A stretch of DNA of 64,000 bases from Ignavibacteriota bacterium. Its GTDB lineage: Bacteria > Bacteroidota > Ignavibacteria > UBA10030 > UBA6906. Of this stretch, positions 1,131 through 64,000 are shown in pieces. The notes below the pieces were generated by a model. It made no database searches. It was given only the letters and a program-made list of their open reading frames with translations, and was not told the DNA's origin. The stretch is taken from NCBI GenBank assembly GCA_963811705.1, contig CAWESL010000005.1, positions 175,278 through 239,277 on the forward strand, read 5' to 3'. The stretch's first letter is position 1, and each line of letters begins with the position of its first letter. Made by a program: the position numbers and the translations under genes.

Positions 1131-1147
1131 TGCCGACTGCCACGAGC

Positions 1148-1603
1148 TCATGCGCCGAGCATCCGTTTGACCGTTTCCTGGACGACCTTGCCGTCGGCTT
1201 TTCCCTTGAGCGCCTTCATCGCGACGGGCATGACCTTTCCGAAATCCTTTGATCCGGATGCGCCAACGTCCGTTATCACCTGACGGACCGCATTCGCAAT
1301 CTCTTCGGCCGACAATTGCTTCGGGAGATATTCCTGGATGATGGCGAGCTCGCGTTCTTCCTGGTCAACGAGCTCCATACGGTTCGCAGCCCTGAATTGC
1401 TCGATCGATTCACGACGCTTTTTCGCCGCGGTGGTCAGGACTCCGATCTCATCTTCCGGGGTCATCCCGGCTTCCGTCCCCCGTTTTTCAATTTCCTTTT
1501 CCAGCAGCGCTGCGCGGATCGTCCGCAGCGTCTCCCTTCGGAGTGTTTCGCCCTTCTTCATCGCCGACTGCAAATCAGTGCTGATTGTTTCCTTCAGACT
1601 CAT
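1148..1603 (-). CDS. GatB/YqeY domain protein
   Basis: 151 aa; sequence pattern (…AMKKGETLRRETLRTIRAAL…KDFGKVMPVAMKALKGKADGKVV…) matches GatB/YqeY family. Confidence 0.8.
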   Translation of the reverse strand: MSLKETISTDLQSAMKKGETLRRETLRTIRAALLEKEIEKRGTEAGMTPEDEIGVLTTAAKKRRESIEQFRAANRMELVDQEERELAIIQEYLPKQLSAEEIANAVRQVITDVGASGSKDFGKVMPVAMKALKGKADGKVVQETVKRMLGA

Positions 1604-1806
1604 GCGTCGTCACTGCTCCTTCCGGTGTCGAAAAAACGAAAAAGGCAGGAATCTCTACGTGGAGTCCCCGCCCGTATCTCTTTCGCAGGCCCCGCTGCGC
1701 GATGTCGTCATTCCACCGCCTGATCGAATTCCCGATCAGCCGGACATCCACCTGCCATGCACTGAAAAAATAGCCCTAATTCGACAAAAAGTCAACGCAC
1801 CATTCT

Positions 1807-2493
1807 TCACACTCCTCCGAAGATTTTGATGACATTTCCGCTGATCGATGCGGCTTCTTTCGAACAAAGAAATGTGATGAGCGCGGCGATCTCCTCAGGC
1901 GGAACCCAGGCGGAGTGGTCCGCCTTCGGCATTCCTTCCAGGTTCGCTTTCGTCCGGATGATCGACGGCGCTATAGCATTGCAGGTTACTCCGGTCCCGC
2001 GAATTTCCTGCGCGAGTGTCAGCGTCATGGTGACGACTGCGCCCTTCGATACTGCATATGCCTCGCGCCGTGCTGATGGCTGGAGCACAGGCATTGCCGC
2101 TATTGTGACGATTCTGCCGTTCTTCCTCGCCTTCATTCCCGCAAGAGTCATTTTCACGGCATGATGGGCAGTAAGAAAATTCATCCGAAACTGTCCCTCC
2201 AGGTCATCATCCGACGTTTCTTCCACCAGGGATCCCCCGACAAAGCCGCCTGCAAGACAGATGAGGATATCCGTCGGGCCGACGTTTTGCTCAACCGAAT
2301 CGAAGAACGCGCGCGCCGCGGGTTCAGCCGTGAGATCACACGCTGCCGCGTAGGTTGCTCCCCGGACGGCACCCGGACTGTTTCTTACGGGGACGGAGAC
2401 CTTTGCATCGAGGCTGCGGAAAGCCTCGATCACGACCATTCCAAGATCGCCGGTTCCTCCGGTGACGACCACATTGTTCCCAGCAAGTTGCAT
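1807..2493 (-). CDS. SDR family NAD(P)-dependent oxidoreductase
   Basis: Gly-rich Rossmann motif VVVTGGTGDLG near N-term; SDR catalytic region YAVSKGAV. Start chosen at internal ATG 2491-2493 (MQLAGNN…); the longer ORF to 2661 would overlap divergent gene at 2567. Confidence 0.8.
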   Translation of the reverse strand: MQLAGNNVVVTGGTGDLGMVVIEAFRSLDAKVSVPVRNSPGAVRGATYAAACDLTAEPAARAFFDSVEQNVGPTDILICLAGGFVGGSLVEETSDDDLEGQFRMNFLTAHHAVKMTLAGMKARKNGRIVTIAAMPVLQPSARREAYAVSKGAVVTMTLTLAQEIRGTGVTCNAIAPSIIRTKANLEGMPKADHSAWVPPEEIAALITFLCSKEAASISGNVIKIFGGV

Positions 2494-2566
2494 GGCGCCC
2501 TCATGTCTTGAAAGTCTGAACAGATAACGGTAGATTGAGCACAATCTTAAGGAGGAGGTACGTGCT

Positions 2567-3124
2567 ATGAAAGGGATTGTCTCACAATTCGCCCCGGTTT
2601 TTTCGGTTCTTCTCTTCGCCGTGATTCTTGTGTCCCCTGCTATTGCCCAGGAGGCCCCCAAGGTCGGCGATATGGCTCCTCAGTTTACGTTGCCAGCCGC
2701 AACGAAGGACACAATTGAGTTTTCAGGCATCAGCCTCAAGTCCGCGCTCGAAAAATCCAGGGTCATCCTGGCGTTCTTTCCCGCCGCGTGGAGCGGCGGA
2801 TGTACGACAGAGATGTGCACGATGCGCGACAACTTCACGGGCCTTTCGGGATTGCATGCGACCGTGTTCGGGATCAGCGGGGACTACGTCTTTACCGACA
2901 GGGAATGGGCAAAGCATCTGGGGCTGCAATTCACGCTTTTGAGCGACCATGACCATGCCGTTGCCAAGGCCTATCACACCTACAACTCTGATTCAGGGTA
3001 CAACGTTCGATCGATCTGGGTGATCGGGCAGGATGGGCGCATTCTCTACAAGGACCCGGCCTATAACGTCCAGAATCCGGATGCGTTCAACCGACTCAAA
3101 GATGCATTGGCATCGCTCAAGTAG
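2567..3124 (+). CDS. Secreted peroxiredoxin/redoxin (AhpC-TSA / Bcp-like thioredoxin-fold) protein
   Basis: Signal peptide; motif FFPAAWSGGCTTEMC typical of redoxin peroxidatic Cys region; strong SD AAGGAGGAGG upstream. Confidence 0.7.
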   Translation: MKGIVSQFAPVFSVLLFAVILVSPAIAQEAPKVGDMAPQFTLPAATKDTIEFSGISLKSALEKSRVILAFFPAAWSGGCTTEMCTMRDNFTGLSGLHATVFGISGDYVFTDREWAKHLGLQFTLLSDHDHAVAKAYHTYNSDSGYNVRSIWVIGQDGRILYKDPAYNVQNPDAFNRLKDALASLK

Positions 3125-3177
3125 ATCGCGGATCGTCTTTTGGTCGAGAGGTCTAACTTCTTTCACACAGGAAACTT

Positions 3178-4986
3178 ATGTTCAAATATAAGGTAGTAAT
3201 TCTCGCTCTCTTTTTCTCTTCCGTTTCGTTTGGTCAGACATCGCCGGAGATTCGCGCGTCTGACATCAAATTGTACCTGAAGTATCTCGCGTCACCGGAA
3301 CTGGAAGGAAGGGCGAGTGGATCGGAAGGAAACAGGAAGGCTGCGGCGTTCATCGCAGACTGGATGAGCCGTGACGGCATCGAGCCCAAAGGTGATAACG
3401 GGACGTATTTTCAGACCTTTGACTTTGTGGCGGCGGTTCGACTGGGAGACGGCAATGCAGTCTCCATGTCCGGAAAGACTTTCGAGGGAGGGACGGCATC
3501 GCTGAAAGTCAATGACGATTTTCGTCCCCTTGCATTCTCCTCGAACGGCTCGGTCAGCGGACCGCTCGCGTTTGCCGGTTACGGCATCACTGCCGGAGAC
3601 CAGAACTACGACGACTACGCCGGCCTCGATGTTGCGGGAAAGGTGGTCGTTGTCCTCCGTTACGGCCCCGATGGCTCCGATCCGCACAGTCCGTTTGGCA
3701 AATACACATCGTTCCGGAATAAGGCGAGGATCGCCCGTGACAAAGGCGCGGTCGCAATCATTTTCCTGAACGGCCCCCGCGACGAGCAATCCGACGATCT
3801 CGTGAGGCTGACCTACGATCAGAGCTTCGAGACTTCGGGGATCCCGGCGATTTCCATGAAGCGCGACTGGATCGAGAGACTCCTCGTCGCCCGCGGTGTC
3901 AGTCTCGGGTCGCTCCAGGATTCGATTCGCGCCACGAAGAAGCCCATGAGCCTCCCGCTCGATGCTGAAGCGACGCTGCAAACGAATGTCGTGAAGGTGA
4001 AATCGAAAACCGCGAATATCATCGGGTTTCTTCCCGGGAATGATCCCGTTCTTCAGGACCAGGTCCTGATTCTCGGGGCACATATGGATCATCTCGGCTA
4101 CGGAGGACGGGGGTCGGGCTCGCTTGTTCCGGATACGATCGCCATTCACCCGGGCGCGGACGACAACGCTTCGGGCGCGAGCGGTCTGATGGAAATCATG
4201 CAGTGGATGGGTTCGCGCAAGCAAACGCTCAAACGCAGCGTGCTGTTCCTCTTTTTCTCGGGTGAAGAATTGGGGACTCTCGGATCCGCCTACTATGTGG
4301 CACATCCTGAACTCCCGTTGGACCGGAGCATCGCCATGCTGAACATGGACATGGTGGGAAGACTGGAGGGGAAGAACCTTACGGTCTACGGTACAGGAAC
4401 TTCCTCTTCCTGGACTCCCCTGCTCGATCGCTTCAACAAGGATTCCACCTTTGCGTTGAAAACCATTCCCGACGGCTACGGCCCGAGCGATCATTCGCAG
4501 TTCTACGGGAAGGACATGCCGGTACTTTTTTTCTTTACCGGCACTCACAATGACTATCATAAACCAGGCGATACCTGGGAGAAGATCAATTATCCCGGCG
4601 AAGAAAAGGTCGTGCGGTTCGTGGCAAATATCGCAGACGCGATTGACATCATGCCGGCGCGCCCCGCGTTCACAAAAGTGCAAACGTCAACGCCTTCCAC
4701 CTCGGGGGACACGCGGTCGTTTTCCGTCACTCTTGGAATCATTCCTGACTATGCCGAAGGGTCCGATGGGATGAAAATCGGCGGGATCAGGCCTGGTGGA
4801 CCAGCGGAGAAGGCAGGGCTCCTTTCCGGCGACATCATCACGAAAATGGGCGGAAAGAAGATCATGAACATCTATGATTACATGGGAGTGCTCGGGGAAC
4901 TCAAGGCGGGAGATCAGGTCGACGTTGAAATAACCCGCGGCGGGCAGGCCATGACCTTCCATGCGACGATGCAGAAGCGTCAATGA
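3178..4986 (+). CDS. M28 family zinc peptidase with PA domain and C-terminal PDZ domain
   Basis: Signal peptide; M28 metal-binding motifs (HMDHLG, GADDNASG, FSGEELG, NMDMVG, DH…DT) and C-terminal PDZ-like GMKIGGIRPGGPAEKAGLLSGDIITKMGGKKI. Confidence 0.8.
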   Translation: MFKYKVVILALFFSSVSFGQTSPEIRASDIKLYLKYLASPELEGRASGSEGNRKAAAFIADWMSRDGIEPKGDNGTYFQTFDFVAAVRLGDGNAVSMSGKTFEGGTASLKVNDDFRPLAFSSNGSVSGPLAFAGYGITAGDQNYDDYAGLDVAGKVVVVLRYGPDGSDPHSPFGKYTSFRNKARIARDKGAVAIIFLNGPRDEQSDDLVRLTYDQSFETSGIPAISMKRDWIERLLVARGVSLGSLQDSIRATKKPMSLPLDAEATLQTNVVKVKSKTANIIGFLPGNDPVLQDQVLILGAHMDHLGYGGRGSGSLVPDTIAIHPGADDNASGASGLMEIMQWMGSRKQTLKRSVLFLFFSGEELGTLGSAYYVAHPELPLDRSIAMLNMDMVGRLEGKNLTVYGTGTSSSWTPLLDRFNKDSTFALKTIPDGYGPSDHSQFYGKDMPVLFFFTGTHNDYHKPGDTWEKINYPGEEKVVRFVANIADAIDIMPARPAFTKVQTSTPSTSGDTRSFSVTLGIIPDYAEGSDGMKIGGIRPGGPAEKAGLLSGDIITKMGGKKIMNIYDYMGVLGELKAGDQVDVEITRGGQAMTFHATMQKRQ

Positions 4987-4998
4987 CGGGGTCTGCGA

Positions 4999-5187
4999 TC
5001 AGTTCTTTTCCGGTTTTAGAATTCTGTGCGCGCTCATAACAAACCGCTGCACGATCCGAAGGCGGGCATCTTCGCTTCTCGCTGCTGAGAGGTCCGCCTG
5101 TTCATTTCTGATGAACGCTTCCAGCACCTTCCGTTCTGATTCCGTCAGCGAACTGACGTATTGTGAGAACATGTCAACTGCGGCCAT
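4999..5187 (-). CDS. Small hypothetical protein (start uncertain)
   Basis: ORF 4999..5283; internal Met (MAAVDMFSQ…) chosen to avoid overlap with flavin reductase; no recognisable domain. Confidence 0.3.
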   Translation of the reverse strand: MAAVDMFSQYVSSLTESERKVLEAFIRNEQADLSAARSEDARLRIVQRFVMSAHRILKPEKN

Positions 5188-5221
5188 TTCGCGTCTCCTG
5201 TCGGAACCACCTGTTGAATCT

Positions 5222-5710
5222 CTATGGTATTTCTTTCCAATAATTGAGCCCCGTGTCGCGCATCGCAAGGCCGACCCCGTCATCGTGAACTTCCGCCTGG
5301 ACTACTTCGCCGAGGAAAAGCGTGTGATCGCCGCTCTCCATGAGCTGCCGAACCTCGCACTCGAGACAACTCAGACTCTCCGTCAAAACCGGATTCCCCG
5401 CTTCTGATCGCGTATATTTTCTCCCGTTGAAATCCCCCGACCTTGAGACCGGGCTGCGAAGGAAATCCCTGGCGATGTCTTCGCCATCGGCGGGAAGGAC
5501 GTTCACGGAGAATCGTCGATGCCTCGTGATGGCGGCATGCATCGTCGATCCATGCTCGATGGCGACGGCAAGAAGGGGCGGTGTGAACGATGCCTGGACA
5601 ATCCAGTTTGCGAGAATTGCCATGCACGCGCCATCTTCCCCCGGAGCACCGAGGACATAGAGGCCGTAAGCCATCTGCTGAAGAGCTTTGCGCTTGACAC
5701 TCGGATTCAT
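5222..5710 (-). CDS. Flavin reductase-like (FMN-binding split-barrel) family protein
   Basis: 162 aa; pattern LQQMAYGLYVLGA…ILANWIVQASFTPPLLAVAI…RDFL…GRKYTRSEAGNPVLTESLSCLECEV typical of flavin reductase domain. Confidence 0.75.
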   Translation of the reverse strand: MNPSVKRKALQQMAYGLYVLGAPGEDGACMAILANWIVQASFTPPLLAVAIEHGSTMHAAITRHRRFSVNVLPADGEDIARDFLRSPVSRSGDFNGRKYTRSEAGNPVLTESLSCLECEVRQLMESGDHTLFLGEVVQAEVHDDGVGLAMRDTGLNYWKEIP

Positions 5711-6051
5711 GAGGGGGTGTGCGATCCTTCGGGTTCACCGGCACATTCGGGACATTCACAAAGAGCCCGGAGTATCCCCCAACTGTAGATCCCGTCCACG
5801 TGTCCGTCACCCCAGGAAAAACGCATCGCATAGTTGCCGATTTGTTCGGCCGCGTTCAAGTCGTACCTGCCGGGTGCGTCGAAGTCAACGGGAGACGGTC
5901 CATAATGCTGGCCGAGGATGGTCTCCCCCCTGCATCCTGCGCATGGGCAGGCATCCCGGAGGCGTTTCAGACCGACGGTTTCCAAATGACCATCGTCCCA
6001 GAGTAACGATATTTCCGTTGATGATTTCCGGCTTAACTTGCGTACGTACAT
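5707..6051 (-). CDS. DUF971 (gamma-butyrobetaine hydroxylase-like N-terminal) domain protein
   Basis: 114 aa; Cys pairs CPCAGCRGE … CECPECAGE and LWDDGH motif typical of DUF971; stop overlaps start of flavin reductase by 4 nt. Confidence 0.65.
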   Translation of the reverse strand: MYVRKLSRKSSTEISLLWDDGHLETVGLKRLRDACPCAGCRGETILGQHYGPSPVDFDAPGRYDLNAAEQIGNYAMRFSWGDGHVDGIYSWGILRALCECPECAGEPEGSHTPS

Positions 6052-6160
6052 GATATTAGAGTTCTTCTTGTAATGCTTTCCCAGTCACCTGTTGTGCGGC
6101 GCACAAATGTGAGAAAACCGTGCCGGAGCAGAGTGCTGGATCCTCAAGGGGAGGGAGCGA

Positions 6161-6694
6161 TTAGGACGGAGAGATTTCTGCCGAGGTGAGTCGGCGGGCA
6201 ATCTCGCGGAGCGCGTCTTTCGTGAGGAATTTCTGCACCAGGGGAAAAAGAATATGATTTTCCTTGTGAATATGGTTGACCATGATTCTCACGATTCCTT
6301 GCGCAATTGCTGCAACATTCCTTGCCGCTTCTTTATCCTTCCGATTCTTGTCCAGGAGCGCAAACGCCTTCTGCAACCGGGAAAACTCCTTCTTTAGCGC
6401 GCGGTGTTCGGTTCGCATCAGTTCTGTGGGACCTTCGACATACCGTTCGAGAACCGGGAACAGCGCCTCCTCCTCTCGCCTGTTATGATGGGTCACCTCA
6501 TCCCTGATAAATTCCACGGCGCGTGACAATCGCCGCCACTCATCTGCGGAATACCCTTCCGCTTCAATCGCGGCGCTTGCCTTCCGGAGCTGCGAAAGCT
6601 GCACAAGCGCTTCGTCGTGCTCCTGCATGAACTGGGCGATGGGATCGATCCGCACGCGCGTCAGATGCTCCGGAATGGCCGTGGTCTTTCTCAC
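6161..6694 (-). CDS. Hemerythrin-like (HHE cation-binding) domain protein
   Basis: 177 aa; repeated H/E-rich helices (MQEHDEAL…, TEHRALKKEF, HIHKENHILFP). Confidence 0.6.
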   Translation of the reverse strand: MRKTTAIPEHLTRVRIDPIAQFMQEHDEALVQLSQLRKASAAIEAEGYSADEWRRLSRAVEFIRDEVTHHNRREEEALFPVLERYVEGPTELMRTEHRALKKEFSRLQKAFALLDKNRKDKEAARNVAAIAQGIVRIMVNHIHKENHILFPLVQKFLTKDALREIARRLTSAEISPS

Positions 6695-6987
6695 TCCGAC
6701 TCCACCATCGTATTGAATTTGATCCCTTTCGCGTCGACCAGCTTGGACAGGCGGCCCATGAAAGCCTCTGAAACCTCATCGCCATCGTCAAAAATCTCCA
6801 GCTCTTCGATGCTCTCCGTGATAAAAACCTCCATGAACTGGTTCTTCCGGTTCTCCGCTTCGAAAACCCCGTAGTTCTTCTTTCGCTTCGTAACGAAATG
6901 TGCCTTCATCTCACGCGAAAGAGCAATGTATTGCTCGCGGCTATCAGGCTTTATTCCGTATGAGATGGTGAGCATTGCCTTAGGCAT
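6691..6987 (-). CDS. Hypothetical 98-aa protein
   Basis: Good-quality ORF, overlaps next gene start by 4 nt (operon); no confident family. Confidence 0.5.
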   Translation of the reverse strand: MPKAMLTISYGIKPDSREQYIALSREMKAHFVTKRKKNYGVFEAENRKNQFMEVFITESIEELEIFDDGDEVSEAFMGRLSKLVDAKGIKFNTMVESE

Positions 6988-7014
6988 GATCTTCCTTTCA
7001 AGTTGACATTCACG

Positions 7015-7389
7015 TTAGTACCCTGCTTCTCGAATCTGCTTTTCGGTCATTCCGTAGTAGTGTCCCAGCTCGTGGATGAGCGTGTCCCGTATGTTTGCGC
7101 GGAGTTCAGCGGCGTTTCCCGAGATCGTCTCGAGGTTCGCCTTGAACAGCGTAATCCGATCCGGGAGCACCGGAAGCATACCATAATCGACGCCCCGCTT
7201 TGACAGCGGCACGCCCTCGTACAGACCGAGGAGCAGTCCTCCTTTACGTACCCCCGCCCTCCGGAGTGTTGTCTCCGACGGGGCGTCATCGACGACAATG
7301 TGCAGGTTCTCGATCCTGCTTGAGAACCGTTGCGGCAGGGTCGACAGAACTTCCTGCACAACCTCATCAAACGTCCCGTCGTCGGCCAC
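7015..7389 (-). CDS. Zincin-like metallopeptidase (DUF1025-type) protein
   Basis: 124 aa; HELGHYYG zinc-binding motif near C-terminus. Confidence 0.7.
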   Translation of the reverse strand: MADDGTFDEVVQEVLSTLPQRFSSRIENLHIVVDDAPSETTLRRAGVRKGGLLLGLYEGVPLSKRGVDYGMLPVLPDRITLFKANLETISGNAAELRANIRDTLIHELGHYYGMTEKQIREAGY

Positions 7390-7406
7390 GCCGTCATCCC
7401 CTGTGA

Positions 7407-8111
7407 TTACACGCCGAACTTCACCATCCGGATCCCTGCTGCCAGGATCGCCGCGAGCACGGGTATGGAGAGCGCGGAAAAGAACGCGCGGGGAACAGAG
7501 AGCCGGTGTGCAACGCGAAGCGCATACACGAGCAGAATCCAGGACCAGAATACGGCGATGCTATCGAGCGTCAGCAACAGCAAATACGCCACAGGGTTAA
7601 TCACGAACGGAGGTGGATTCGAATCGAAAAAGTAGCCTCCAAAGACCGCGAGTTCCACGGGAAAAATAAAGACAAGCGACCAGACAATCGGGACCGTCGC
7701 GTACGCTATTACCGCCATGGTTGCCTTCATGGAAGAATGACCGCCGAGAATTTTCGAGATCACGCGAAGAACGAAACTCATCAGCACCACCGACACGATC
7801 CCGAGCACCGGGCCGGCCAGCAACGCGACCAGCAGCACTCCCCCCAGTCCGCCGAGAATCCGACCGTAGTTGCCGAACCAGAGAACCGTCACCGCAAATG
7901 CAATGCCGAAGAGGGCTGTCAGGAAAAGCGTATAATTCTTGTGCCGGGCGATCGCAATACGGTGCATCGTCGATCGCGGGGATTCCAGAAGTCCCCACGA
8001 TGTATGGAACAGATCGAGTGTGTCAACCTTCGTCTGGAGATATCCTTTGCAGGAGACACATACCACAGCAAGATCGTCGTTTTCTTTTCCGCATACTGGA
8101 CAGAGCAGCAT
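7407..8111 (-). CDS. Yip1-like multi-pass membrane protein with N-terminal zinc-ribbon
   Basis: N-terminal CPVCG…CVSCKG zinc ribbon followed by ~5 hydrophobic helices. Confidence 0.55.
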   Translation of the reverse strand: MLLCPVCGKENDDLAVVCVSCKGYLQTKVDTLDLFHTSWGLLESPRSTMHRIAIARHKNYTLFLTALFGIAFAVTVLWFGNYGRILGGLGGVLLVALLAGPVLGIVSVVLMSFVLRVISKILGGHSSMKATMAVIAYATVPIVWSLVFIFPVELAVFGGYFFDSNPPPFVINPVAYLLLLTLDSIAVFWSWILLVYALRVAHRLSVPRAFFSALSIPVLAAILAAGIRMVKFGV

Positions 8112-8215
8112 TGGACCTCCGGCGATAAGCGGACTGCCTCAACTGCCGAATTATCAACTACTTAAAGGTACATTTTTTCCCGCTCCCGATCAATTTCCCC
8201 GGGCACATGCGCAAA

Positions 8216-9592
8216 CTACGTGCGGATAGGCTCAAATTTTGCGGTGAAATGCCTGAGCATCGGCGGCTCTTCGACGATGCGATATCCGGGGAGACGCTCA
8301 CGGTGCTGATAGCATTCTTCGATGACTTCGATGACGTAGTCAATATGGCTCTGCGTGTACACCCGGCGCGGTATGGCGAGACGGACCAGTTCCATCCTCG
8401 CCGCTTGAAATGTTCCGCCGGCGTCCGTCCGTCCGAACATCACACTGCCGATTTCGACGGATCGGATGCCGCCGTGGCGATAGAGTTCGACGGAAAGCGA
8501 CTGGCCCGGGAATTGCGACGGTGGAATGTGCGGAAGAAAACGTTTTGCGTTCAGATAGATTGCATGGCCGCCCGGCGGCTGCAATATGGGCACGCCCGCT
8601 GCCGTCAAGCGTTCGCCAAAATATTCGATGGAGCGGATCCGGTATTGCAGATAGTGCTCATCCAGAACCTCGTCGAGCCCCTGGGAGATCGCTTCGAGAT
8701 CGCGGCCGGCGAGTCCGCCGTATGTGGGAAACCCTTCGGTCACGATCAGGAGATTGCGGGCGTTCCGGGCCAGCGCTTCGTCGTTGAGGGCAAGGAATCC
8801 TCCCATGTTCACAATGGCGTCCTTCTTCGCGCTCATCGTCGCGCCGTCCGCGTATGAGAACATTTCATGCACGATTTCGCGAACGGGCACCGTTGCGTAT
8901 CCCGCTTCGCGGCGCTTAATGAAATATGCGTTCTCGGCAAACCGGCATGCATCCAGGAAAAACGGGATGCCGAACGAGTGACAGAGCTCACTCGTTTCCC
9001 GGATGTTCGCCATCGAAACGGGCTGCCCTCCCCCGGAGTTATTGGTCACGGTCATCATGCAAAGGGGAATTGATTCCGCACCGACGCGCGTAATTAATTC
9101 CTTCAGTGCAGCAATGTCCATGTTCCCCTTGAAGTCCGCGATGACGTCAGGATCCGAGCCTGCACTCGTCGGGAGGTCGATCGCCTCCGCCTGGGAAAAC
9201 TCGACATTCGCGCGGGTGGTATCGAAATGACTGTTGTTCGGAATCACCTTCCCTTTTCCACCCACGATCGAAAAGAGGATCCTCTCGGCGGCTCTTCCCT
9301 GGTGCGTCGGGATGATGAAACGCATTCCGGTCAGATCGCGCACGGTTTGCTCAAACCGGTAGAAACTCCTGGCTCCCGCATAGGATTCATCCCCCCGCAT
9401 CATCCCTGCCCACTGGTCGGCACTCATGGCCGCGGTCCCGCTATCGGTCAGAAGGTCGATGAGCACTTCTTCCGCGTGAATCATGAACAGATTATACGCC
9501 GCCCGGCGCAATACCTCCTCCCGTTCAGCAGGTGTCGTGAAGCGAATCGGCTCCACCGATTTTATTTTGAACGGCTCGATGATGGTTTTCAT
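8216..9592 (-). CDS. tnaA: Tryptophanase / tyrosine phenol-lyase family beta-eliminating lyase (PLP-dependent)
   Basis: 458 aa; near-colinear similarity to E. coli TnaA from memory (PFKIK…EP, DLLTDSGT, IPTHQGR, SAKKDA PLP-lysine region, FPTYGGL, HFTAK C-term). Confidence 0.85.
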   Translation of the reverse strand: MKTIIEPFKIKSVEPIRFTTPAEREEVLRRAAYNLFMIHAEEVLIDLLTDSGTAAMSADQWAGMMRGDESYAGARSFYRFEQTVRDLTGMRFIIPTHQGRAAERILFSIVGGKGKVIPNNSHFDTTRANVEFSQAEAIDLPTSAGSDPDVIADFKGNMDIAALKELITRVGAESIPLCMMTVTNNSGGGQPVSMANIRETSELCHSFGIPFFLDACRFAENAYFIKRREAGYATVPVREIVHEMFSYADGATMSAKKDAIVNMGGFLALNDEALARNARNLLIVTEGFPTYGGLAGRDLEAISQGLDEVLDEHYLQYRIRSIEYFGERLTAAGVPILQPPGGHAIYLNAKRFLPHIPPSQFPGQSLSVELYRHGGIRSVEIGSVMFGRTDAGGTFQAARMELVRLAIPRRVYTQSHIDYVIEVIEECYQHRERLPGYRIVEEPPMLRHFTAKFEPIRT

Positions 9593-9607
9593 CGTTGGTG
9601 GGGTCGC

Positions 9608-10135
9608 CTATTCGTGTTGGTATCGGATCAGGGAAACCACATCTCTTCCCGCCAGCAATGCACGCCCCTTCAGAAACTCGAGCTCAATGAGAAACGAAAT
9701 GCCCGCCACGGTTCCGCCGAGCTTCTCGACGAGCGTACATGCCGCGTTCATGGTTCCGCCGGTCGCGAGGAGATCGTCATGCAGAAGCACCCGCATCCCC
9801 TTGCGGACCGCATCATTGTGGATCTCGATCGTGTCCGTTCCGTACTCGAGCGAGTATTCCTGGCGGGTCACGGTCGCGGGGAGTTTCCCCGGCTTGCGGA
9901 TCGGCAGAAAGCCGACGCCCAGTTTGTACGCGAGCGGCGCGCCAAGGATGAACCCGCGCGACTCGATCCCTGCGACGGCGTCGATCTTCTGGTCCCGATA
10001 CTGGTCGACCAGCATGTCGATCGCCGTCCGGAACATGACGGGGTCCTTGAGCAGGGTCGTAATGTCACGGAACATGATCCCTTTTTTCGGGAAGTCCGGC
10101 ACGGTCCGGATGGAACTCTGGAGGTCAAGGGTCAT
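9608..10135 (-). CDS. apt: Adenine phosphoribosyltransferase
   Basis: 175 aa; PRPP-binding motif [13 protein letters not shown]; typical Apt N-terminus ([15 protein letters not shown]). Confidence 0.9.
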
Positions 10136-10138
10136 GCG

Positions 10139-10921
10139 CTACCATTCGTTGGTTTTGTGGAGGAGGAAGTTTCCTATCCCCTGCCTGCAATCCGGCGTCA
10201 TCCTCGCCGCCGCATTCACGTTCGCAGCAAAATCCAACGCATCCACGAGGTTCAGGCCTTCGAGCTTTGCGATCAGTTCCTTGGTCAACGCCAGCGATGT
10301 CCCGCTGTTCTCAGTGCAAAGCGCGTCAGCCAATGACTGCGCGACCGTTTGCAGAGCGTCGTCGGGGATGACTTCGCTGACCAGGCCGATGGCATGCGCC
10401 TCGCGGGCGCTCAGCGCATTCGCGCGCAAGGTCAGTTCGCGCGCACGCCCTTCGCCGACACGACGGATCAGGAACGGCATGACCACCGCGGGCACGAAAC
10501 CGATATGCGCTTCGGTGTATCCAAACTCTGCGCGCTTCTCCCCCGCAAGGATAAAATCGCATACGGTCGCAAGACCACACCCTCCTGCGAGTGCAGGACC
10601 CTGCACGACGGCAATCACGGGTTTGCGCAATTCATAAACCGTCCTGAACAGCGTTGCGAGTTTTCCGGAGTCTTCACGGTTCGCTTCGAGCGATTGATCG
10701 GCAATGCGCTGGAGATACTCGAGATCGGCGCCGGCGCAAAATGCCGGACCTTTGGCATCGAGGAGAATGACTCTCACCGAGGGTTCCCGGGCGGCCGCGA
10801 GAAAAACGGTCGTCAGCTCGGCGATGGAGGATTCGTCCAGAGCATTGCGCTTCTCGGGGCGGTTGAGCGTGATTATTGCCTTACGCCCTTCCTGACGGTA
10901 AAGGAGACGTGTGGAATTCAT
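10139..10921 (-). CDS. Enoyl-CoA hydratase/isomerase (crotonase) family protein
   Basis: 260 aa; crotonase oxyanion-hole motifs (GPAFCAGADL…, VQGPALAGGCGLA). Confidence 0.85.
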   Translation of the reverse strand: MNSTRLLYRQEGRKAIITLNRPEKRNALDESSIAELTTVFLAAAREPSVRVILLDAKGPAFCAGADLEYLQRIADQSLEANREDSGKLATLFRTVYELRKPVIAVVQGPALAGGCGLATVCDFILAGEKRAEFGYTEAHIGFVPAVVMPFLIRRVGEGRARELTLRANALSAREAHAIGLVSEVIPDDALQTVAQSLADALCTENSGTSLALTKELIAKLEGLNLVDALDFAANVNAAARMTPDCRQGIGNFLLHKTNEW

Positions 10922-56696: not shown

Positions 56697-57738
56697 TTAC
56701 TCCCCCTTGCTCATCTTCGGCCACGAATATCCATACATTGCGATGAGCGCAATACAAAAGAGTGGCACGAGGAAGCTGAACGACATATTGTAAAGATCCC
56801 CAAGGTATCCCATAAGCTCCGGCATGATCGCTCCGCCAATGATCGCCATGACGATGAAACCTGAAGCCCTCTTCGCCTTCACTCCAAGCCCGTGGATGTC
56901 AAGGGCAAAGATCGTCGGAAACATAATCGACATGAAGAAGAAGCTGAGAAACATCGCGCGCTGCCACTGCACCGACGAAATGCGGGTGTGACCAGATGGA
57001 ACGGCTGACGTTGGAGTCGGTTGAGTCGCTCAGGTGATACTCATCCTCTGTATTCAGGTCGGGGACCTTGGCGAAGTAGAAGACCACCGCCATTACAAGG
57101 ACGATCACTGCTACGGCAAGGTAAGGGATGTACAAATGACCCTGGGCGACTTCTGCGTCACCGGCGGAATAAAAGAAGACTCCCCCGATGATGGGACCAA
57201 AAATCCATCCGACACCGTTGAACGATTGAGCAAGATTAATGCGCGCTGCGGCAAACGACTTCGGACCAAGAACCGTTGTATAGGGATTGGCCACCGTCTC
57301 AAGAATTGTCAACCCCATGGCTATGACACACACTCCCAGCAGGAACGCCCAGAATGATGAGATGGATGTTGCAGGAACAAACCAGAATCCGCCCAGCGCG
57401 ACGATCAAGAGCCCGGATATGATGCCTCCTTTGTAACCGAGTTTGCGTGCCAGCCAGCTTGCGGGCATGGCCATCAGAAGATAGCCCAAATAGTGCGCGA
57501 ACTGCACCCAGGCCGACTGTGCCTTTGTCAAATGCAGTTGATCCTGAAAGTGCTTGTCCATCACATCGATCATCCCATTGCAGATTCCCCACAACAAGAA
57601 CAACGTGCTGACGAGTGCAAACGTGAATACGTAGCTCCTGCCATCCTCACTCTTGAACATCTTGGAGAGATCCATGACGACTTCCTTTAGCAACAGCTTG
57701 ACGAGTCGAGCAAGTGACGGCATGCTCATCATCAACAT
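56697..57738 (-). pseudogene. fucP: Degraded L-fucose:H+ symporter (FucP-family MFS transporter)
   Basis: ORF 56899..57738 matches FucP N-terminal half up to …SHPHFVGAVAA then goes out of frame; ORF 56697..56972 matches only the last two TM helices (…FIVMAIIGGAIMPELMG…); ~70 aa of mid-protein missing. Confidence 0.65.
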
Positions 57739-57869
57739 CTATGTCGACGCCCACATCGAATGACAGGGCTAAAGCATGCGTCGAAATGTATCCTTCACAA
57801 AGTTCGAATTCAAGTGAGGGGCAAGACAGATCGCGCAACCCGACTTCCGGCCTTCGAAAAAGCAGCATC

Positions 57870-58268
57870 GGCGGAGGAATTATATCGAATGGCGGGACTA
57901 ATGGACGATGGTGGGGAGTGGCCTGGTGTAAATTTGGGACGAAATGTCGGTTGTCTCACAATCTTAGAGTCCCCATTCTTCATTCCTCCGGCCTCATCTC
58001 CCCTGCGCGCGGCGGCGAAAGCGATAGAGATTTCGTGCACAAACTTGGAATTGTGCTGAAGGAACTGAATGAATCTGCAATCTGGCTGACCTTCATCCAG
58101 GAAGGGAGGTACCTGATGGACTCAGAGCTCGGAAGGATTCAGGAAGAATGCACGACGATGTGCCGAATCATCGCTGCGAGTATCAACACGGTGCGGAAAA
58201 GATGTGAGAATGAGATGGGAAGGAGATTATCGAAAATTGAGAATCGAAAATCGAGGATCGGAAACTGA
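57870..58268 (+). CDS. Four-helix-bundle protein (TIGR02436-like), probably diverged or truncated
   Basis: C-terminal half GGESDRDFVHKLGIVLKELNESAIWL resembles the conserved SxKDFIHKLSIALKEANET motif; N-terminal region of ORF 57714.. is low-complexity. Confidence 0.4.
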   Translation, partial: GGGIISNGGTNGRWWGVAWCKFGTKCRLSHNLRVPILHSSGLISPARGGESDRDFVHKLGIVLKELNESAIWLTFIQEGRYLMDSELGRIQEECTTMCRIIAASINTVRKRCENEMGRRLSKIENRKSRIGN

Positions 58269-58397: not shown

Positions 58398-58445
58398 TGT
58401 GCACCCAGTAGGACTCGAACCTACAACCCACTGATTAAGAGTCCC
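58398..58445 (-). other. tRNA 3-prime fragment (T-arm plus acceptor 3-prime strand); candidate att repeat at island boundary
   Basis: Minus strand reads …GTAGG-TTCGAGT-CCTAC-TGGGTGC-A (canonical T-stem/loop, acceptor, discriminator), but no matching 5-prime acceptor strand (GCACCCA), D-arm or foldable anticodon arm upstream. Confidence 0.5.
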
Positions 58446-59029
58446 AGCTTGGTTAGAGCCGACTTGTGCGAACACCCCTTTTGACAGGATTCCTTGAAGT
58501 CTCTTCACTGGGTCTGATAGTTCCAAACCCAATTGGTCCACAGTCCTGTCTACAGCTTCCCTGCTCGCGCCGATGAAATTGTGTGGGTGATGTTCTTGAC
58601 TCTACTTCAATTTACGAAACGCCAGTTGCCATAGCAAGCCATACATTCTCGCCGTTGTCCCGCATCACATCTTCGAGCCAGTGCCCCCCCACTTTGTCTC
58701 ACAAAGATGCCCCACAACTGCCGACATCATGAACTCCTCGAGGAACAAGACGGCTTCGCAAGAATGACCGCGCATTCTTCACTGCGAGGTTGAATAGACG
58801 GCGCTTTCTTATGGAATGTCCTCATAATGTGACGAATCGAGAACTTGGTTAAACCAGTCGAATCGATATTCTCGCCCTTGGTTTCCTCGTCGCAAAGCCT
58901 ACGGCCCCCTGTCCGTGCAGCCGACAAACAATCTTCTTACTTCATTCGAGTTGCATCAAGGGAGCAATTCACTAGATCGGCTTCAACACTCGCGTATGGG
59001 ACGTTATCTTTGTATATAGCGACTCAGAG

Positions 59030-61696
59030 TCATTCCTTAACTCGCCTTCCGACATCATATTTGGCGTATTTGTTCCGGTAAGTTACCAGTCCACCCTCTA
59101 GGTAGTTAATGACTTCGATGCCAACAGGATCGTGGTCCATTGAACCTTCAAGAGTTACTCTACCTCTGTCTGCATCAGCCTCAAGAACGACGAAACTATC
59201 ACTGTCAGAGGCTACCGCCAAGCTCGAATTATGAGTGGTGAAGATAAACTGACGCCTTTCCTTGCCCTTGCGCAATTTCATACAGACGTCTGTCCAAATG
59301 GATCTGATGTCAAGAGAATCTTCTGGCTGGTCGATCACAATGGGCATGCTTCCATCACTTAGAGCCATGATGAGCATTGCTGTGCATTTCTGACCGACAG
59401 ATAACCTGGCCAAAGGTGCGTGGGAGCCATCCGATAGACAATACTGTATCTGAGGCCTGTCCTGTGGCACCGCCTTGTACTGCAGTTCCAGCAAGTCCTC
59501 TATTTCGACAACATCAAGAAGGTAGTTGGCCAATGTCACGACGGCACCCAATTCCAGGGACACTTTGCTTGCCAGATCTTTCAATCTTTCAGGCTGCCTT
59601 CGGGCTGCGTAGGTGATAATCTTGCCAATGAACTCCCTTGGAGTTACGGATTGACAGATTCTCTCGATATCGGTATCTCGTAGGTACGATCCCCTCTTCA
59701 GCTCACCTAGTCTTTGCTTGAACACGTCCACATTTGAAGCTTCCAGCAGCGTAATCTTTAGCTTCCCAGAAGATTCTTCCTCAAACATCCGGCATTTAGC
59801 TCTTCGATCGGCGCTGAAGGCGCCGTATATCTTGGCCAGCCGATCTAGTCGCTCGTTCCTCTCATCGCTGATTTGTTTCGCTTTGTCCACAAGCTCCTTC
59901 GCCTTGTCCAAGCGACTCTGCGTATCTGCTAGTTCCTTCACAAGCTTTGATCGCTTCGCGGCAACAGCCTGATAGGTGCCTCCCATTTGCCTTACAGTCG
60001 CTTCATAGTCTGCCTTGGCGGCTTTGTATGTAGAGAGCAGCGCGTGTTCCTCTGAGGAAAGACTACCGAGTATTTCATGCAGTCTGTCGCCCAACTCCCT
60101 GAGTTTGAGTTCCACCGCCGCTCTGGTTTCTGAAATCAGTTTTGCAGCCCTCCTCAGGCTTGGGTCATCCGCCACCGAAGCCGGGAAGGCTGGAGTGGGA
60201 ACATCTAGAAAGTACTTCACAGCGGGACCTACTCTTGACGACAACCCCTTGACATAGGCGAGCGACGATTGAAGAGCTTGCTGTTTACCCTCTGCCTTGG
60301 CAAATTTCTCAAACACCGGATTCTTCAGTGACTCGTCGATGCCGATTACTTCAGCGTTGATTGTGTCTATTCGCTTCTTGAGCCCCTCGGTCTCGATGAA
60401 GGCTCGTAGGGCGGCCGCGAGCTGTTTGTCAAGACCCTTCAATTCCCTCTCGAACTGGTCAATGGCTTCAGTATGGGCTTTGAAGTCAAAGAACCTGTCA
60501 ATGAAAGCGAGCTGTTCGTTTTCGTCTTCGGCAATTCTAATGATTTCATTCTGACTGAGAAAGAGTACGGGGAACACTCGCGTAACATCTACAGAAGCAT
60601 CCTCTTGCGGGTTGTTTTCTTCCGGATCATAATGGCGTTTGACTGCTATTCGTCTTCCTGTTTCCAGTACCAAGGTTACCTCGACTGTTCCATATGTCTT
60701 CAGGCACTGTTCTAACTTGCTTCGATGATCGTCCGCTACACCCTCATTGGCTGAGCACTGATCAAGGACAAACCTGAGTAGTTCCACAAGGAGCGACTTG
60801 CCTGATCCCTTTGCACCGATTACACTTGTTAGACCCTCGTGAAATGTGATCGTGCAGCCATCGAGAAAACCACCGAGGATAGAAATGGTTTCTATCCTCG
60901 GAAACACAATCGGCTCGGCAAGTTCGATTCTAATTCGGACGTCTGGATCATCAAAACAGTTCCTCAGACTTTGGAGATCAACTCGCTCCATCTTGAAGTA
61001 CGTTACTCTTATGCCGATGCCCTCGACACTATGGCCACTCTTACCTGCCAGGGCCGGATTGTCCGAAGATTGAATCACAGCAAGTTTCCGCTTATACTCT
61101 GGATCTGTCCCGTCCAGGAAGTCAATTGCCCTTCGTCTGTTGCTCCTCTTCTCCGGATCTAGATTGTCGGTTGCCTCCACAGCATGCAATGATGAATGCT
61201 GAATGACCAGCGTCCTTGAGCGACCCTTCATTTCTGTAAACAACCCGTGACTCGAATTCACGTGAGCCGGTATAGCCAGAGCATCACAATCAGCAATTTG
61301 TGCAATGACTTCAGAAGGAGACCTCTGAACGACAGTGGTTTCCCTGCCATGATCTTCCGGAGATAGACCCAACTTACTTAGAAGGTCTCTGACATGTTCT
61401 CCTCGTTTGGATGGATCAAAAACTGCCAGTATGTGGACCCCGGATCCTGCTTGGGTTGTGATCTCTACACCAGGGAAGACCGCAAGTGGTTTTCCCTCCG
61501 CGGCTGCCTTGATCTTATCAACCCACTCGCCACTGTTATGGTCCGTGATCGCTATGCCTGCAAGGCCTTTACTGATGGCTTGGGCCACGATATCGGCAGC
61601 AATCGCCTCAGCTTTAGCATCAGTGGGATGAATAAAATCTGAAGAAGCGGGAGTGTGAACATGCAGGTCGAGAGAAACATACTTTAATCCTGGCAT
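59030..61696 (-). CDS. PHP-domain phosphoesterase fused to Rad50/SbcC/RecF-like ABC ATPase with long coiled-coil
   Basis: N-terminus LDLHVHTPASSDF…ITDHN…GVEIT…AIPAHV (PHP His/Asp motifs); Walker A GAKGSGKS (~aa 310); ~400 aa coiled-coil-like; C-terminal signature LSVGQK, Walker B IVIDQPEDSLD, H-loop FTTHN. Confidence 0.75.
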   Translation of the reverse strand: MPGLKYVSLDLHVHTPASSDFIHPTDAKAEAIAADIVAQAISKGLAGIAITDHNSGEWVDKIKAAAEGKPLAVFPGVEITTQAGSGVHILAVFDPSKRGEHVRDLLSKLGLSPEDHGRETTVVQRSPSEVIAQIADCDALAIPAHVNSSHGLFTEMKGRSRTLVIQHSSLHAVEATDNLDPEKRSNRRRAIDFLDGTDPEYKRKLAVIQSSDNPALAGKSGHSVEGIGIRVTYFKMERVDLQSLRNCFDDPDVRIRIELAEPIVFPRIETISILGGFLDGCTITFHEGLTSVIGAKGSGKSLLVELLRFVLDQCSANEGVADDHRSKLEQCLKTYGTVEVTLVLETGRRIAVKRHYDPEENNPQEDASVDVTRVFPVLFLSQNEIIRIAEDENEQLAFIDRFFDFKAHTEAIDQFERELKGLDKQLAAALRAFIETEGLKKRIDTINAEVIGIDESLKNPVFEKFAKAEGKQQALQSSLAYVKGLSSRVGPAVKYFLDVPTPAFPASVADDPSLRRAAKLISETRAAVELKLRELGDRLHEILGSLSSEEHALLSTYKAAKADYEATVRQMGGTYQAVAAKRSKLVKELADTQSRLDKAKELVDKAKQISDERNERLDRLAKIYGAFSADRRAKCRMFEEESSGKLKITLLEASNVDVFKQRLGELKRGSYLRDTDIERICQSVTPREFIGKIITYAARRQPERLKDLASKVSLELGAVVTLANYLLDVVEIEDLLELQYKAVPQDRPQIQYCLSDGSHAPLARLSVGQKCTAMLIMALSDGSMPIVIDQPEDSLDIRSIWTDVCMKLRKGKERRQFIFTTHNSSLAVASDSDSFVVLEADADRGRVTLEGSMDHDPVGIEVINYLEGGLVTYRNKYAKYDVGRRVKE

Positions 61697-62047
61697 TATC
61701 GACCCCTCCAGATGCGAATAGGCTTTTCGTGGTACCTCTTTTCCCCCTTGATTGCATGCTGCTGAAAATCTGCGAGCCAGTTTTGGTGATTTCAGGTAGA
61801 ACAGGGCAAACGATATTCCTTCCGGAGGAGTGTGCAGCCCCTCTAGGAGACCTGTAGCCAGATCCTCGAGTTCTCACACCGGTTCGCGAGATCCTTCTCA
61901 GAGCACTATTCTAAGAGTCCTTCGAACGAGACGGGCAGGGACCAATGGATTCCGCAAAGCCTCCAATGGTATCGCTTCCCCTATCCTCGGATGTGCCAAC
62001 TGATTCGCCGGTCCTTTGGCAGGCCAAATAGTGGCAAAGGCCGGCAG

Positions 62048-62560
62048 TCACGACTCCTCCTTGATTGTGCCGTTTTCCTCGACCCTCAGGGTAATCCACT
62101 CGAACCGTTCCCTCTCAACCGCTCTTTCAATAGATCGTTGGAGATCCCTGTGTTGCCCTGAAGATGATTCTCGGTCGAGCAACACGATACGTTTGACCTG
62201 ATCGGCATTCTTCATTCCATCGAAAACGACAAAATCAATAGGATGAAAGAGAACCTTTGCGTCATCTGGATTCAGTCTGCGAGGAGTGAATACAGGATCG
62301 ATCTTCTTGACAACTCTCCCCGCGGCAATGCGCCCTCTTTGCCGGGCTAGCTCCTGTAATTCCTGTTTACGCTCTTCAAGCTTATCTGCCAACGATTCAA
62401 GCCGGTCCGCCTCCGCATCAAGGGTATCCATCCAATCCGTTCTTGGCTTTGTCCTCAAGAAGACTCTGCAATCGCTTAAGCGGATAAACTCCCGGCACCT
62501 AGGACAAATGCCGAAAATCTGTCTCTGGACGTTGAAGAACTTCAATATCTCTTCTTTCAT
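62048..62560 (-). CDS. Small protein: N-terminal CPxC zinc-ribbon-like motif, coiled coil, C-terminal PD-(D/E)xK-like domain
   Basis: 171 aa from MKEEILKF; GICPRCREFIRLSDC; coiled-coil DAEADRLESLADKLEERKQELQELARQR; C-terminal FHPIDFVVFDG…KRIVLLDRE; ATG overlaps upstream stop (ATGA). Confidence 0.55.
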   Translation of the reverse strand: MKEEILKFFNVQRQIFGICPRCREFIRLSDCRVFLRTKPRTDWMDTLDAEADRLESLADKLEERKQELQELARQRGRIAAGRVVKKIDPVFTPRRLNPDDAKVLFHPIDFVVFDGMKNADQVKRIVLLDRESSSGQHRDLQRSIERAVERERFEWITLRVEENGTIKEES

Positions 62561-63065
62561 TTCTTCACCTCCTGCTTGTACACATCCCAAAGGAGGCGTT
62601 TCTTCGCTATAACCGATCGTATTTCCTTTTGGTGGTTGTTCAAGCGTGCATTGCCTGTCTTGATGTCCGTAAATAGAATGCGCTCAACCTTCCCTTTGGC
62701 GCTAAGACCCTCGAAAATGATATAGTCAATCGGGTCGAATAACGAACGGCAGTCATTGGAGTTGAAGCGGAACGATTTCATGGCTGGAGCTAGCCGCTCA
62801 GTATGAATCCAATGTTGATTGATTTGGCTCCCACCTCAGACCGCTTGCTGATGTTCCTTCTCTCTTCCCGCAGTTCCTTTACCTGCTCGCGGAGTTGGGC
62901 AACGCGCTCTTCATAGAGTTTCTCTGCTTCTGGAGTGAAGCTGTCAAGATGAAACAGATGAGCATCCCGAAGACGAATCGTTTCCTGGCAACTTGGACAT
63001 ACCACATAGAATCGCTCATGGGTGAGCGTATGGATGATCTGCTTGGCAATTCCCGAAAGATCCAT
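62557..63065 (-). pseudogene. Tandem paralog of 62048-62560, split into 91-aa N-terminal and 74-aa C-terminal ORFs by a ~26-nt insertion/frameshift
   Basis: 62790..63065 (VVCPSCQETIRLRDAHLF…coiled coil…AKSINIGF) aligns to the N-half and 62557..62781 (FDPIDYIIFEG…ILFTDIKTG) to the C-half of the intact paralog; different frames, 8 nt apart. Confidence 0.5.
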
Positions 63066-63276: not shown

Positions 63277-63746
63277 TCATCGACGTGCGACGCTTAGTCG
63301 CATAGCTTCATTGAGCAGCGCTTCCATGTTGTTGCGAATTTCCGCCAGATCATCGTTTTGCCTGTTTGCTAGATTTACAACGATCTGCGCCGATCGCGGG
63401 GTCAGAAGTCGTTGCGTAAGTATCCCGAGGCCATATAGGGGACTCCATGATGACACCATTGCGGCCTTTACTTCACCTCCGAAGGAATTCGGTTTGAGTC
63501 CAAAAATGCGCAATGGAATTTGATCGGTATTCGATAAGGAAAGGCACCAGCCTCCCCGATTCTGTCTCCGGAAACATCATATTCACCGACCAACTCAGCA
63601 AGGGCCGCGATCGCCTTTTCTACGGTCAACGCGAGTGAATCTCCGCTCAGCCAACTGCTGACCCTCCTCGTATTACTCCCCCACAGTCCAAATCTGACGC
63701 ATGTTAGGAAATCAATCTCATTACTCTTTACCACCTTTAGCCGCAT
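63277..63746 (-). CDS. Two overlapping hypothetical ORFs (92 aa and 78 aa), possibly one frameshifted gene
   Basis: ORF 63468..63746 and 63277..63513 overlap by 46 nt in different frames; no family recognised. Confidence 0.25.
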
Positions 63747-64000
63747 CTTGAATCCACTCTTTCGATGTGTTCGGATGCCTACCGTAATCCAATGACGGCA
63801 ATCTCACCTGCAGTCATCCCAAGTATTCATCAGACAATGTGTCGGTCTGACACCCTAGAGGTAGAGCATCCGCAAGATGTCCACCAGTCTTGGTAGACAC
63901 GACGGTACCCACAAGGTCGGGCAAACGAAAGAGGACCTCCTCCCCCGTTAGATACTCTCAAGCCTATCCCGGGGATTTACGGGCTGCAAACTGGATCTAG

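Follow-up and report, generated by a model that had tools for sequence, protein, structure and literature searches.

A TrlF/Ppl-family fusion of a PHP domain and an SMC/Rad50-like ATPase, probably a stand-alone immunity protein, in an Ignavibacteriota bacterium

The gene and its predicted architecture

A stretch of 64,000 nucleotides from an Ignavibacteriota bacterium (contig CAWESL010000005.1 of assembly GCA_963811705.1, positions 175,278 to 239,277 of the forward strand) was analysed. The whole stretch is called the window here, and its positions are counted from its first letter. Near its end, the minus strand encodes an 888-residue protein, in which a PHP phosphoesterase domain is fused to an ATPase of the ATP-binding cassette (ABC) type. 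The gene, its putative ribosome-binding site, and the predicted parts of the protein are listed below.

59030..61696, minus strand: complete gene for the 888-residue TrlF/Ppl-family PHP-ABC ATPase fusion, from the list of open reading frames (ORFs), with an ATG start and the stop codon within the span
61703..61709, minus strand: Shine-Dalgarno-like GGAGGGG, read from the sequence, 6 nt 5' of the ATG at 61696
60989..61684, minus strand: PHP phosphoesterase/nuclease domain, beta/alpha, residues 5-236, with ligands H12, H14, D20, H53, E78, H88, H145, D212, and H222
60488..60898, minus strand: N-lobe of the ABC head, residues 267-403, with Walker A at G294-S301 and Q-loop Q382 (AlphaFold; Pfam AAA_23, AAA_15, and SMC_N; conservation)
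59774..60481, minus strand: helical arm, residues 406-641, made of two helices (406-497 and 512-641) connected at the apex by a 14-residue loop without Cys (498-511)
59474..59761, minus strand: domain of a strand and six helices, about 95 residues (646-741), between the arm and the C-lobe (AlphaFold secondary structure; could be assigned to no family)
59033..59461, minus strand: C-lobe of the ABC head, residues 746-888 (Pfam AAA_21 and AAA_15; PDB match of AriA to residues 665-831; conservation)

The gene is intact. Its ORF starts with ATG and occupies exactly the span 59030..61696 that the preliminary description had given for an 888-residue protein. It is also full length in comparison with its homologues, as residues 1-887 can be aligned to a homologue. 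Promoter and terminator scans gave matches at chance level only. All the motifs that had been read from the translation are present: HVHT (12-15), ITDHN (49-53), GVEIT (76-80), and PAHV (143-146) in the PHP part; GAKGSGKS (294-301), LSVGQK (765-770), IVIDQPEDSLD (786-796), and FTTHN (819-823) in the ATPase part. They are not chance matches, because the protein is matched by Pfam and by the NCBIfam TrlF model, and the motif residues hardly vary among 220 aligned homologues.

The Pfam PHP model covers residues 10-82 with 26.9 bits, barely over its gathering score of 26.4. The AAA_15, AAA_23, AAA_21, and SMC_N models together cover residues 276-830; the SMC_N match (30.9 bits) lies under the cut-off of 40. 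An AlphaFold2 model was built from a 46-sequence alignment, with a mean pLDDT (predicted local distance difference test) of 85.6 and a pTM (predicted template modelling score) of 0.69. In this model, a short beta linker joins the PHP domain to the N-lobe of the ABC head. The C-lobe has a core at 746-851, followed by a C-terminal helical tail, and carries the signature residues S766-G768-Q769, the Walker B D789, the catalytic E792, the D-loop D796, and the H-loop H822.

Structural searches, including Foldseek against the PDB, showed that the N-terminal domain is closest in fold to EndoQ. RNase AM (7ug9, target TM 0.66) and other PHP phosphoesterases were also matched. The ATPase part matched the heads of Smc, JetC, MukB, condensin, Rad50, and RecN in the PDB (E 1e-9 to 1e-6), and the RecF head and LmuB were also among its fold matches. 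Searching the PDB sequences with a family profile identified PHP proteins of the TrpH/RNase AM type (3e0f, 7ug9, 9etk, and 2yb1; E 7e-11 to 7e-8), as well as AriA, SMC, and Rad50. The best PDB sequence match of the C-lobe is AriA (E 6e-5). No solved structure of Ppl or TrlF was identified by PDB sequence, profile, or fold search; only separate PHP and SMC/Rad50/AriA structures were matched. The two structural points on which the preliminary description had been made to depend, the PHP fold of the N-terminal domain and the assembly of the Walker and signature motifs into an ABC head, therefore both hold in the model. The architecture and fold are as first described: a PHP nuclease-type domain and an SMC/Rad50-like ATPase in one chain.

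The length of the coiled coil had been overestimated. Instead of about 400 residues, the arm is predicted to have about 235 (helices of about 92 and 130 residues, presumably antiparallel) and to end in a simple loop; the remainder forms the separate helical domain of about 95 residues at 646-741. No hinge domain was found at the end of the arm in the AlphaFold2 model. There is no CxxC zinc hook either, as no CxxC occurs anywhere in the 888 residues and loop 498-511 contains no cysteine. For the same reason, no zinc ribbon was seen in the protein.

Family membership, conservation, and spread

The protein was matched by the NCBIfam model NF045780 ('TrlF family AAA-like ATPase') with 365.5 bits (cut-off 350, E 9.6e-109). 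The match is full length, with residues 9-869 on model positions 8-932 of 944, and exceeds the curated cut-off. The order of domains is also that of TrlF, an N-terminal PHP domain followed by an ABC ATPase that is split by a helical insertion. Close homologues of the protein scored 360-381 bits on the same model, and a TrlF-annotated archaeal plasmid protein shares 26-27% identity with it. A search for the origin of the name TrlF, or for an experiment behind it, returned only spectroscopy (TRLFS) and unrelated papers. The 'Spaf_1101 family' model of NCBIfam gave a full-length match under its cut-off (214 bits, cut-off 475).

Among the PADLOC profiles, Ppl (PDLC02208) was the best match by far (E 3.9e-47); this profile comes without a stated cut-off, and the match falls into two stretches, the best of which covers only residues 3-571. 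Weak matches to LmuB, AriA, GajA, PtuA, and mad3 followed. Ppl itself can be placed by means of a protein from a Klebsiella conjugative plasmid, of 892 residues and named 'anti-phage protein Ppl' by the PGAP annotation, which scored 1343 bits on the Ppl model and 473 bits on the TrlF model. Since it passes the TrlF model too, Ppl is a subfamily within TrlF. The window protein is collinear with the Klebsiella Ppl over residues 1-879 (25% identity, E 4e-51), and the two share the nine PHP ligands, the ABC motifs, and the stand-alone organisation. By these scores and alignments, the protein belongs to the TrlF family, and its relation to Ppl is paralogous, not that of an equivalog. The suggestion that the fusion is a new arrangement was not borne out, as the TrlF/Ppl family is already curated in NCBIfam and PADLOC, and Ppl is a reported defence gene.

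A separate observation concerns the PADLOC candidate PDC-M49A, which matched residues 9-96, at the PHP end, and residues 766-853, in the C-lobe of the ATPase, with different profiles. This suggests that related PHP-ATPase proteins are already among PADLOC's candidate systems.

Conservation was analysed in an alignment of 220 sequences, including the query, 217 full-length homologues (25-71% identity), the Klebsiella Ppl, and a Halapricum TrlF protein. The PHP ligands H12, H14, H53, E78, H88, H145, D212, and H222 are kept in 214-220 of the 220. The ligand position 20 is occupied by C in 124 sequences and by D in 90; a C/D swap at such a ligand position occurs in other PHP domains. In the ATPase part, G294, G297, G299, K300, S301, Q382, S766, G768, Q769, D789, E792, D796, and H822 are kept in 201-220 of the 220, with K300 in all, Q382 in 219, and H822 in 205 (93%). 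Apart from position 20 and H822, every PHP ligand and every catalytic residue of the ABC head is conserved in at least 97% of the sequences. The residues H12, H14, D20, H53, E78, H88, H145, D212, H222, K300, Q382, S766, G768, D789, E792, and H822 are all present and aligned with Ppl. The alignment thus indicates that the catalytic residues are conserved.

The family is large. A total of 1045 proteins were identified at E<=1e-5 among 90%-identity clusters, and 1003 representatives of 50%-identity clusters at E<=1e-30. Nearly all of the top 120 homologues have 880-900 residues and the PHP and AAA_23/SMC_N/AAA_21 domains. The best homologue is 71% identical; therefore the exact protein is new, and its kind is already known. 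The distribution is patchy over many bacterial and archaeal phyla. The bacterial carriers include Acidobacteriota, Chloroflexota, Planctomycetota, Verrucomicrobiota (Chthoniobacterales), Bacteroidota, Actinomycetota, Patescibacteria, and Bacillota; the archaeal carriers include Bathyarchaeia, Thermoplasmatales, Methanoperedens, Methanoregula, and Methanothermococcus.

The preliminary description had set the protein beside SbcCD and Mre11-Rad50. It does share with them an ABC head of the Rad50/SbcC type with an inserted helical arm, and the working principle may also be similar, namely an armed ABC head combined with a metal nuclease that is directed to DNA ends. However, the nuclease of SbcCD and Mre11-Rad50 is a separate calcineurin-like subunit, whereas here a PHP domain is fused in cis, and the predicted arm is short and without the CxxC zinc hook. 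No Mre11/SbcD-type partner gene was found beside the gene, where Endonuc_Holl paralogues and unassigned ORFs lie, or conserved in 52 loci of related genes. The NCBIfam Rad50 models gave only 15.2-15.5 bits against cut-offs of 847-1000. The biology of the family also appears to be mobile and defence-related, unlike the core repair function of SbcCD and Mre11-Rad50. Membership in the SbcCD/Rad50 family was rejected on the missing hook, the missing partner, and these scores, so the likeness does not extend to kinship in that sense. Membership in the SMC family was rejected as well: there is no globular hinge, the arm helices have about 92 and 130 residues instead of more than 300 per arm, and they end in a 14-residue loop. 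The NCBIfam SMC models gave about 22-27 bits (cut-offs 567-729).

The ABC ATPase head is common to several defence proteins, including AriA of PARIS, LmuB of Lamassu, GajA of Gabija, PtuA of Septu, and JetC of Wadjet. These systems have several genes or Toprim, HNH, or other effectors, and none has an N-terminal PHP domain. On the side of the PHP domain, EndoQ and RNase AM (TrpH/YciV) are stand-alone enzymes without an ATPase, unlike the window protein.

Neighbourhoods of the family and the local setting

The ORFs within 6 kb of the gene were collected at 52 non-redundant loci and clustered all against all. No conserved partner gene was identified, and the commonest neighbour cluster occurred in only 5 of the 52 loci. 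As no neighbour is conserved, the gene is independent of its neighbours, and the organisation is that of a single gene without an obligatory partner. The recurrent neighbours are large serine recombinases, tyrosine integrases, type III Mod and Res, and type I HsdM and HsdS. Other homologues adjoin resolvases, a Replic_Relax gene, or a gene for a RES-domain toxin. The Klebsiella Ppl gene adjoins an Abi-family gene and an insertion sequence, and a Staphylococcus plasmid copy has an Fst toxin gene on one side and a recombinase gene on the other. The neighbours of the window gene, including the Endonuc_Holl genes, have no counterpart at any of the related loci.

Copies on mobile elements were also found. 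In the plasmid collection, 48 records matched at least 80% of the query, and nearly all of those listed are named TrlF or Ppl by PGAP. Overall, 893 plasmid records matched part or more of the query, 632 of which are predicted to be conjugative; most of the 893 are partial matches to the ATPase. In the phage collection, two Listeria records (18-20 kb) were matched with 99% coverage, and a 14-kb Vibrio record with 50% coverage across the query span. The context of the gene is mobile or defence-related, and the pattern of neighbourhoods is that of a mobile, self-sufficient single-gene defence module.

One further arrangement recurs in this survey. The 71%-identical homologue adjoins SNF2-helicase/DUF1156/DUF499, Hypoth_Ymh, and SLFN_AlbA_2 genes, and a Halapricum plasmid copy sits between DUF1156 and DUF499/DUF262 genes. 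TrlF genes thus stand beside SNF2-helicase/DUF1156/DUF499 (and DUF262) sets twice independently, at positions 1-7600 for the homologue and 1041-10532 for the plasmid. This may be repeated co-location in defence islands, not a functional link.

The other features near the gene in the window are listed below.

56697-57738, minus strand: major facilitator superfamily (MFS) transporter, apparently split in two overlapping ORFs (56899-57738 and 56697-56972)
57714-58268, plus strand: 184-residue ORF beside the tRNA-like remnant; its C-terminal part gave a sub-threshold match to '23S rRNA-intervening sequence protein' (four-helix-bundle; 28 bits, threshold 33.8)
58400-58469, minus strand: degenerate tRNA-like remnant
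62048-62590, minus strand: first PF10107 paralogue (Endonuc_Holl, 'endonuclease related to archaeal Holliday junction resolvase')
62557-63065, minus strand: second PF10107 paralogue, frameshifted near 62790
63468-63746, minus strand: 92-residue ORF, no Pfam, NCBIfam, or PADLOC match

The GC content of the window drops from about 0.56-0.59 to 0.48-0.52 over about 56-58 kb and stays low up to the end of the window. In the tRNA-like remnant, the T-arm and the 3' acceptor strand (GTAGGTTCGAGTCCTACTGGGTGCA) are perfect and the anticodon loop is Lys(CUU)-like, but both the anticodon stem and the acceptor stem are broken. The remnant scored 17.3 bits on the Rfam tRNA model (gathering score 29). ARAGORN found no intact tRNA in the 64 kb, and the T-arm/acceptor sequence has no second copy within the window. 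The remnant is probably a leftover integration (att) site, which would mark one boundary of an acquired island extending past the end of the window. Just outside the lower-GC stretch, the split MFS transporter is either a frameshifted pseudogene or the result of a sequencing error.

Upstream of the TrlF gene, a gap of 351 nt separates it from the tandem PF10107 paralogues. These are 27% identical to each other, and both combine a zinc-ribbon-like CxxC...C segment at the N-terminus with a coiled stretch. They gave no PADLOC or NCBIfam match and have no counterpart beside TrlF genes elsewhere; they were therefore treated as unrelated cargo, and the pair could be separate cargo of the island. The last 250 nt or so of the window contain no long ORF.

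Proposed function and alternative explanations

According to a paper that cites their work, Gao et al. reported that Ppl is a defence gene. In the literature, Ppl is a one-gene system in which an ATPase is combined with a PHP domain, and it is countered by the phage protein Bas63 gp130. As summarised in a 2026 review and in two citing papers, the E. coli Ppl is a 3'-5' exonuclease on single-stranded DNA that is kept off by nucleoside triphosphates (NTPs) bound to the PHP and NTPase domains (Xu et al. 2026, Mol Cell 86:180). The same sources state that it is switched on by phage-induced depletion of NTPs together with the 3'-OH ends that phage homing endonucleases produce (Xu et al. 2026).

Taken together, the analyses suggest that the window protein is probably a stand-alone immunity protein of the TrlF/Ppl family on horizontally acquired DNA, in which the PHP domain would be the effector, and the ABC head with its arm the sensor or regulator. 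Anti-phage activity, substrate, NTP control, and oligomeric state are inferred for it by homology with Ppl. A Ppl-like scheme seems most likely because the protein can be aligned collinearly with Ppl and has lost none of the catalytic residues. In such a scheme, the SMC/Rad50-like head and the arm of about 235 residues would bind nucleotides, probably as a head-to-head dimer around NTP. Cellular NTPs bound at the heads would keep the PHP nuclease silent. On phage infection, NTPs would be depleted and 3'-OH ends of DNA exposed, and the nuclease might then be released. It would degrade DNA in the 3'->5' direction from free 3' ends, and the infection would be stopped. The earlier suggestion of a single-chain machine that processes DNA ends agrees with the published accounts of Ppl in the review and the citing papers (sensing of 3'-OH overhangs, 3'-5' exonuclease on single strands); the arrangement as such is not new.

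Several observations weigh against this interpretation. The TrlF score is just 15 bits over the cut-off, and the clade of the window protein accordingly seems to lie at the edge of the TrlF family. The Ppl equivalog model (NF042955) was matched over the full length with only 216 bits, under the cut-off of 1000, and identity to the characterised Ppl is only 25%; functional transfer therefore crosses subfamilies. No integrase was seen in the window, and the island is not delimited, with its other end past position 64000. Finally, a 9-residue insertion between D212 and H222 splits the S-D-x-H motif of the PHP domain (SD-NPALAGKSG-H), whereas Ppl has the canonical SDAH. The D-H spacing is exactly nine residues in 125 of the 220 aligned sequences and eight in 33. 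The canonical one-residue form was found in 40, namely Ppl, the Halapricum TrlF protein, and 38 others. This is the only variant feature seen, and most environmental members of the TrlF family carry such an insertion. With the low identity and the altered D-x-H loop, substrate and trigger could differ from those of Ppl.

The same features allow for a stronger version, in which the clade is a functionally distinct TrlF/Ppl branch that responds to another nucleic-acid cue or acts on another substrate, such as RNA or lesion-bearing or modified DNA. The clade comprises most environmental homologues, has about 25% identity to Ppl, and conserves the 9-residue loop. We regard such a branch as unlikely; if it were real, the ABC head and arm would be a different kind of sensor.

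A related explanation keeps the defence role and changes the chemistry only, so that the PHP domain would cut RNA or damaged or modified DNA instead of single-stranded 3'-OH ends. The structural neighbours point in this direction. The closest solved PHP domains by profile are of the RNase AM/TrpH type (7ug9, a 5'-3' exoribonuclease, and 9etk) and of the 3',5'-bisphosphate phosphatase type, and EndoQ, the closest by fold, is a lesion-specific endonuclease. The 9-residue insertion of the clade fits as well, and the anti-Ppl phage protein Bas63 gp130 is described as Ro60-like, which hints at a link to RNA. However, the protein as a whole aligns collinearly with Ppl, all nine metal ligands included, and one PHP fold class acts on several substrates, so the structural neighbours are not decisive. 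A change of substrate of this kind is considered rather unlikely.

The frequency of plasmid copies raises another explanation, that the protein is a factor of competition between, or maintenance of, mobile elements and is not primarily directed against phages. It might exclude rival plasmids or integrative and conjugative elements, or stabilise its own element. The 48 plasmid records with at least 80% query coverage, the 632 predicted conjugative ones among all 893, and the frequent resolvase, integrase, and Replic_Relax neighbours are consistent with this role. Wadjet, an SMC-like system, acts on plasmids, and its JetC is a fold neighbour of the ATPase part. On the other hand, most of the 893 matches cover part of the ATPase and not the full length; mobile elements commonly carry defence genes, and the sole tested homologue protects against phages according to the accounts cited above. 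Such a primary role seems quite unlikely.

The protein could also be read as a housekeeping DNA-repair machine, a one-chain functional analogue of SbcCD/Mre11-Rad50 that would process hairpins or double-strand ends in the chromosome of the cell itself. The genomic and family evidence argues against this. Synteny is absent, with no neighbour in more than 5 of the 52 loci; the distribution over phyla is patchy, and plasmids and small phage-like elements carry copies as well. The neighbours are recombinases and restriction-modification genes, and the GC content is lower here than elsewhere in the window. A zinc hook is missing, the scores on the Rad50 and SbcC models are about 15 bits (cut-offs 847-1000), and the characterised homologue Ppl is an immune protein in the published accounts cited above. 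A repair function is therefore very improbable.

Decay of the gene to a non-functional remnant, as part of a degraded island, would fit the frameshifted second Endonuc_Holl paralogue, the split MFS transporter, and the degenerate tRNA-like sequence, but is extremely improbable for a full-length ORF with a good ribosome-binding site and every catalytic residue intact.

The immunity protein proposed here belongs to a kind that is already catalogued, and its best-studied member, Ppl, has a published mechanism; it is not a new type of machine. The main value of the finding is one of annotation, as the gene can be labelled as a defence candidate of the TrlF/Ppl family, and by its presence the last 6 kb or so of the window are marked as probably horizontally acquired. 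Within the family, which forms about 1000 clusters at 50% identity in bacteria and archaea, the studied enterobacterial Ppl occupies a small and divergent corner. The dominant environmental clade, with its altered PHP motif, would be a reasonable target for extending the biochemistry of Ppl.

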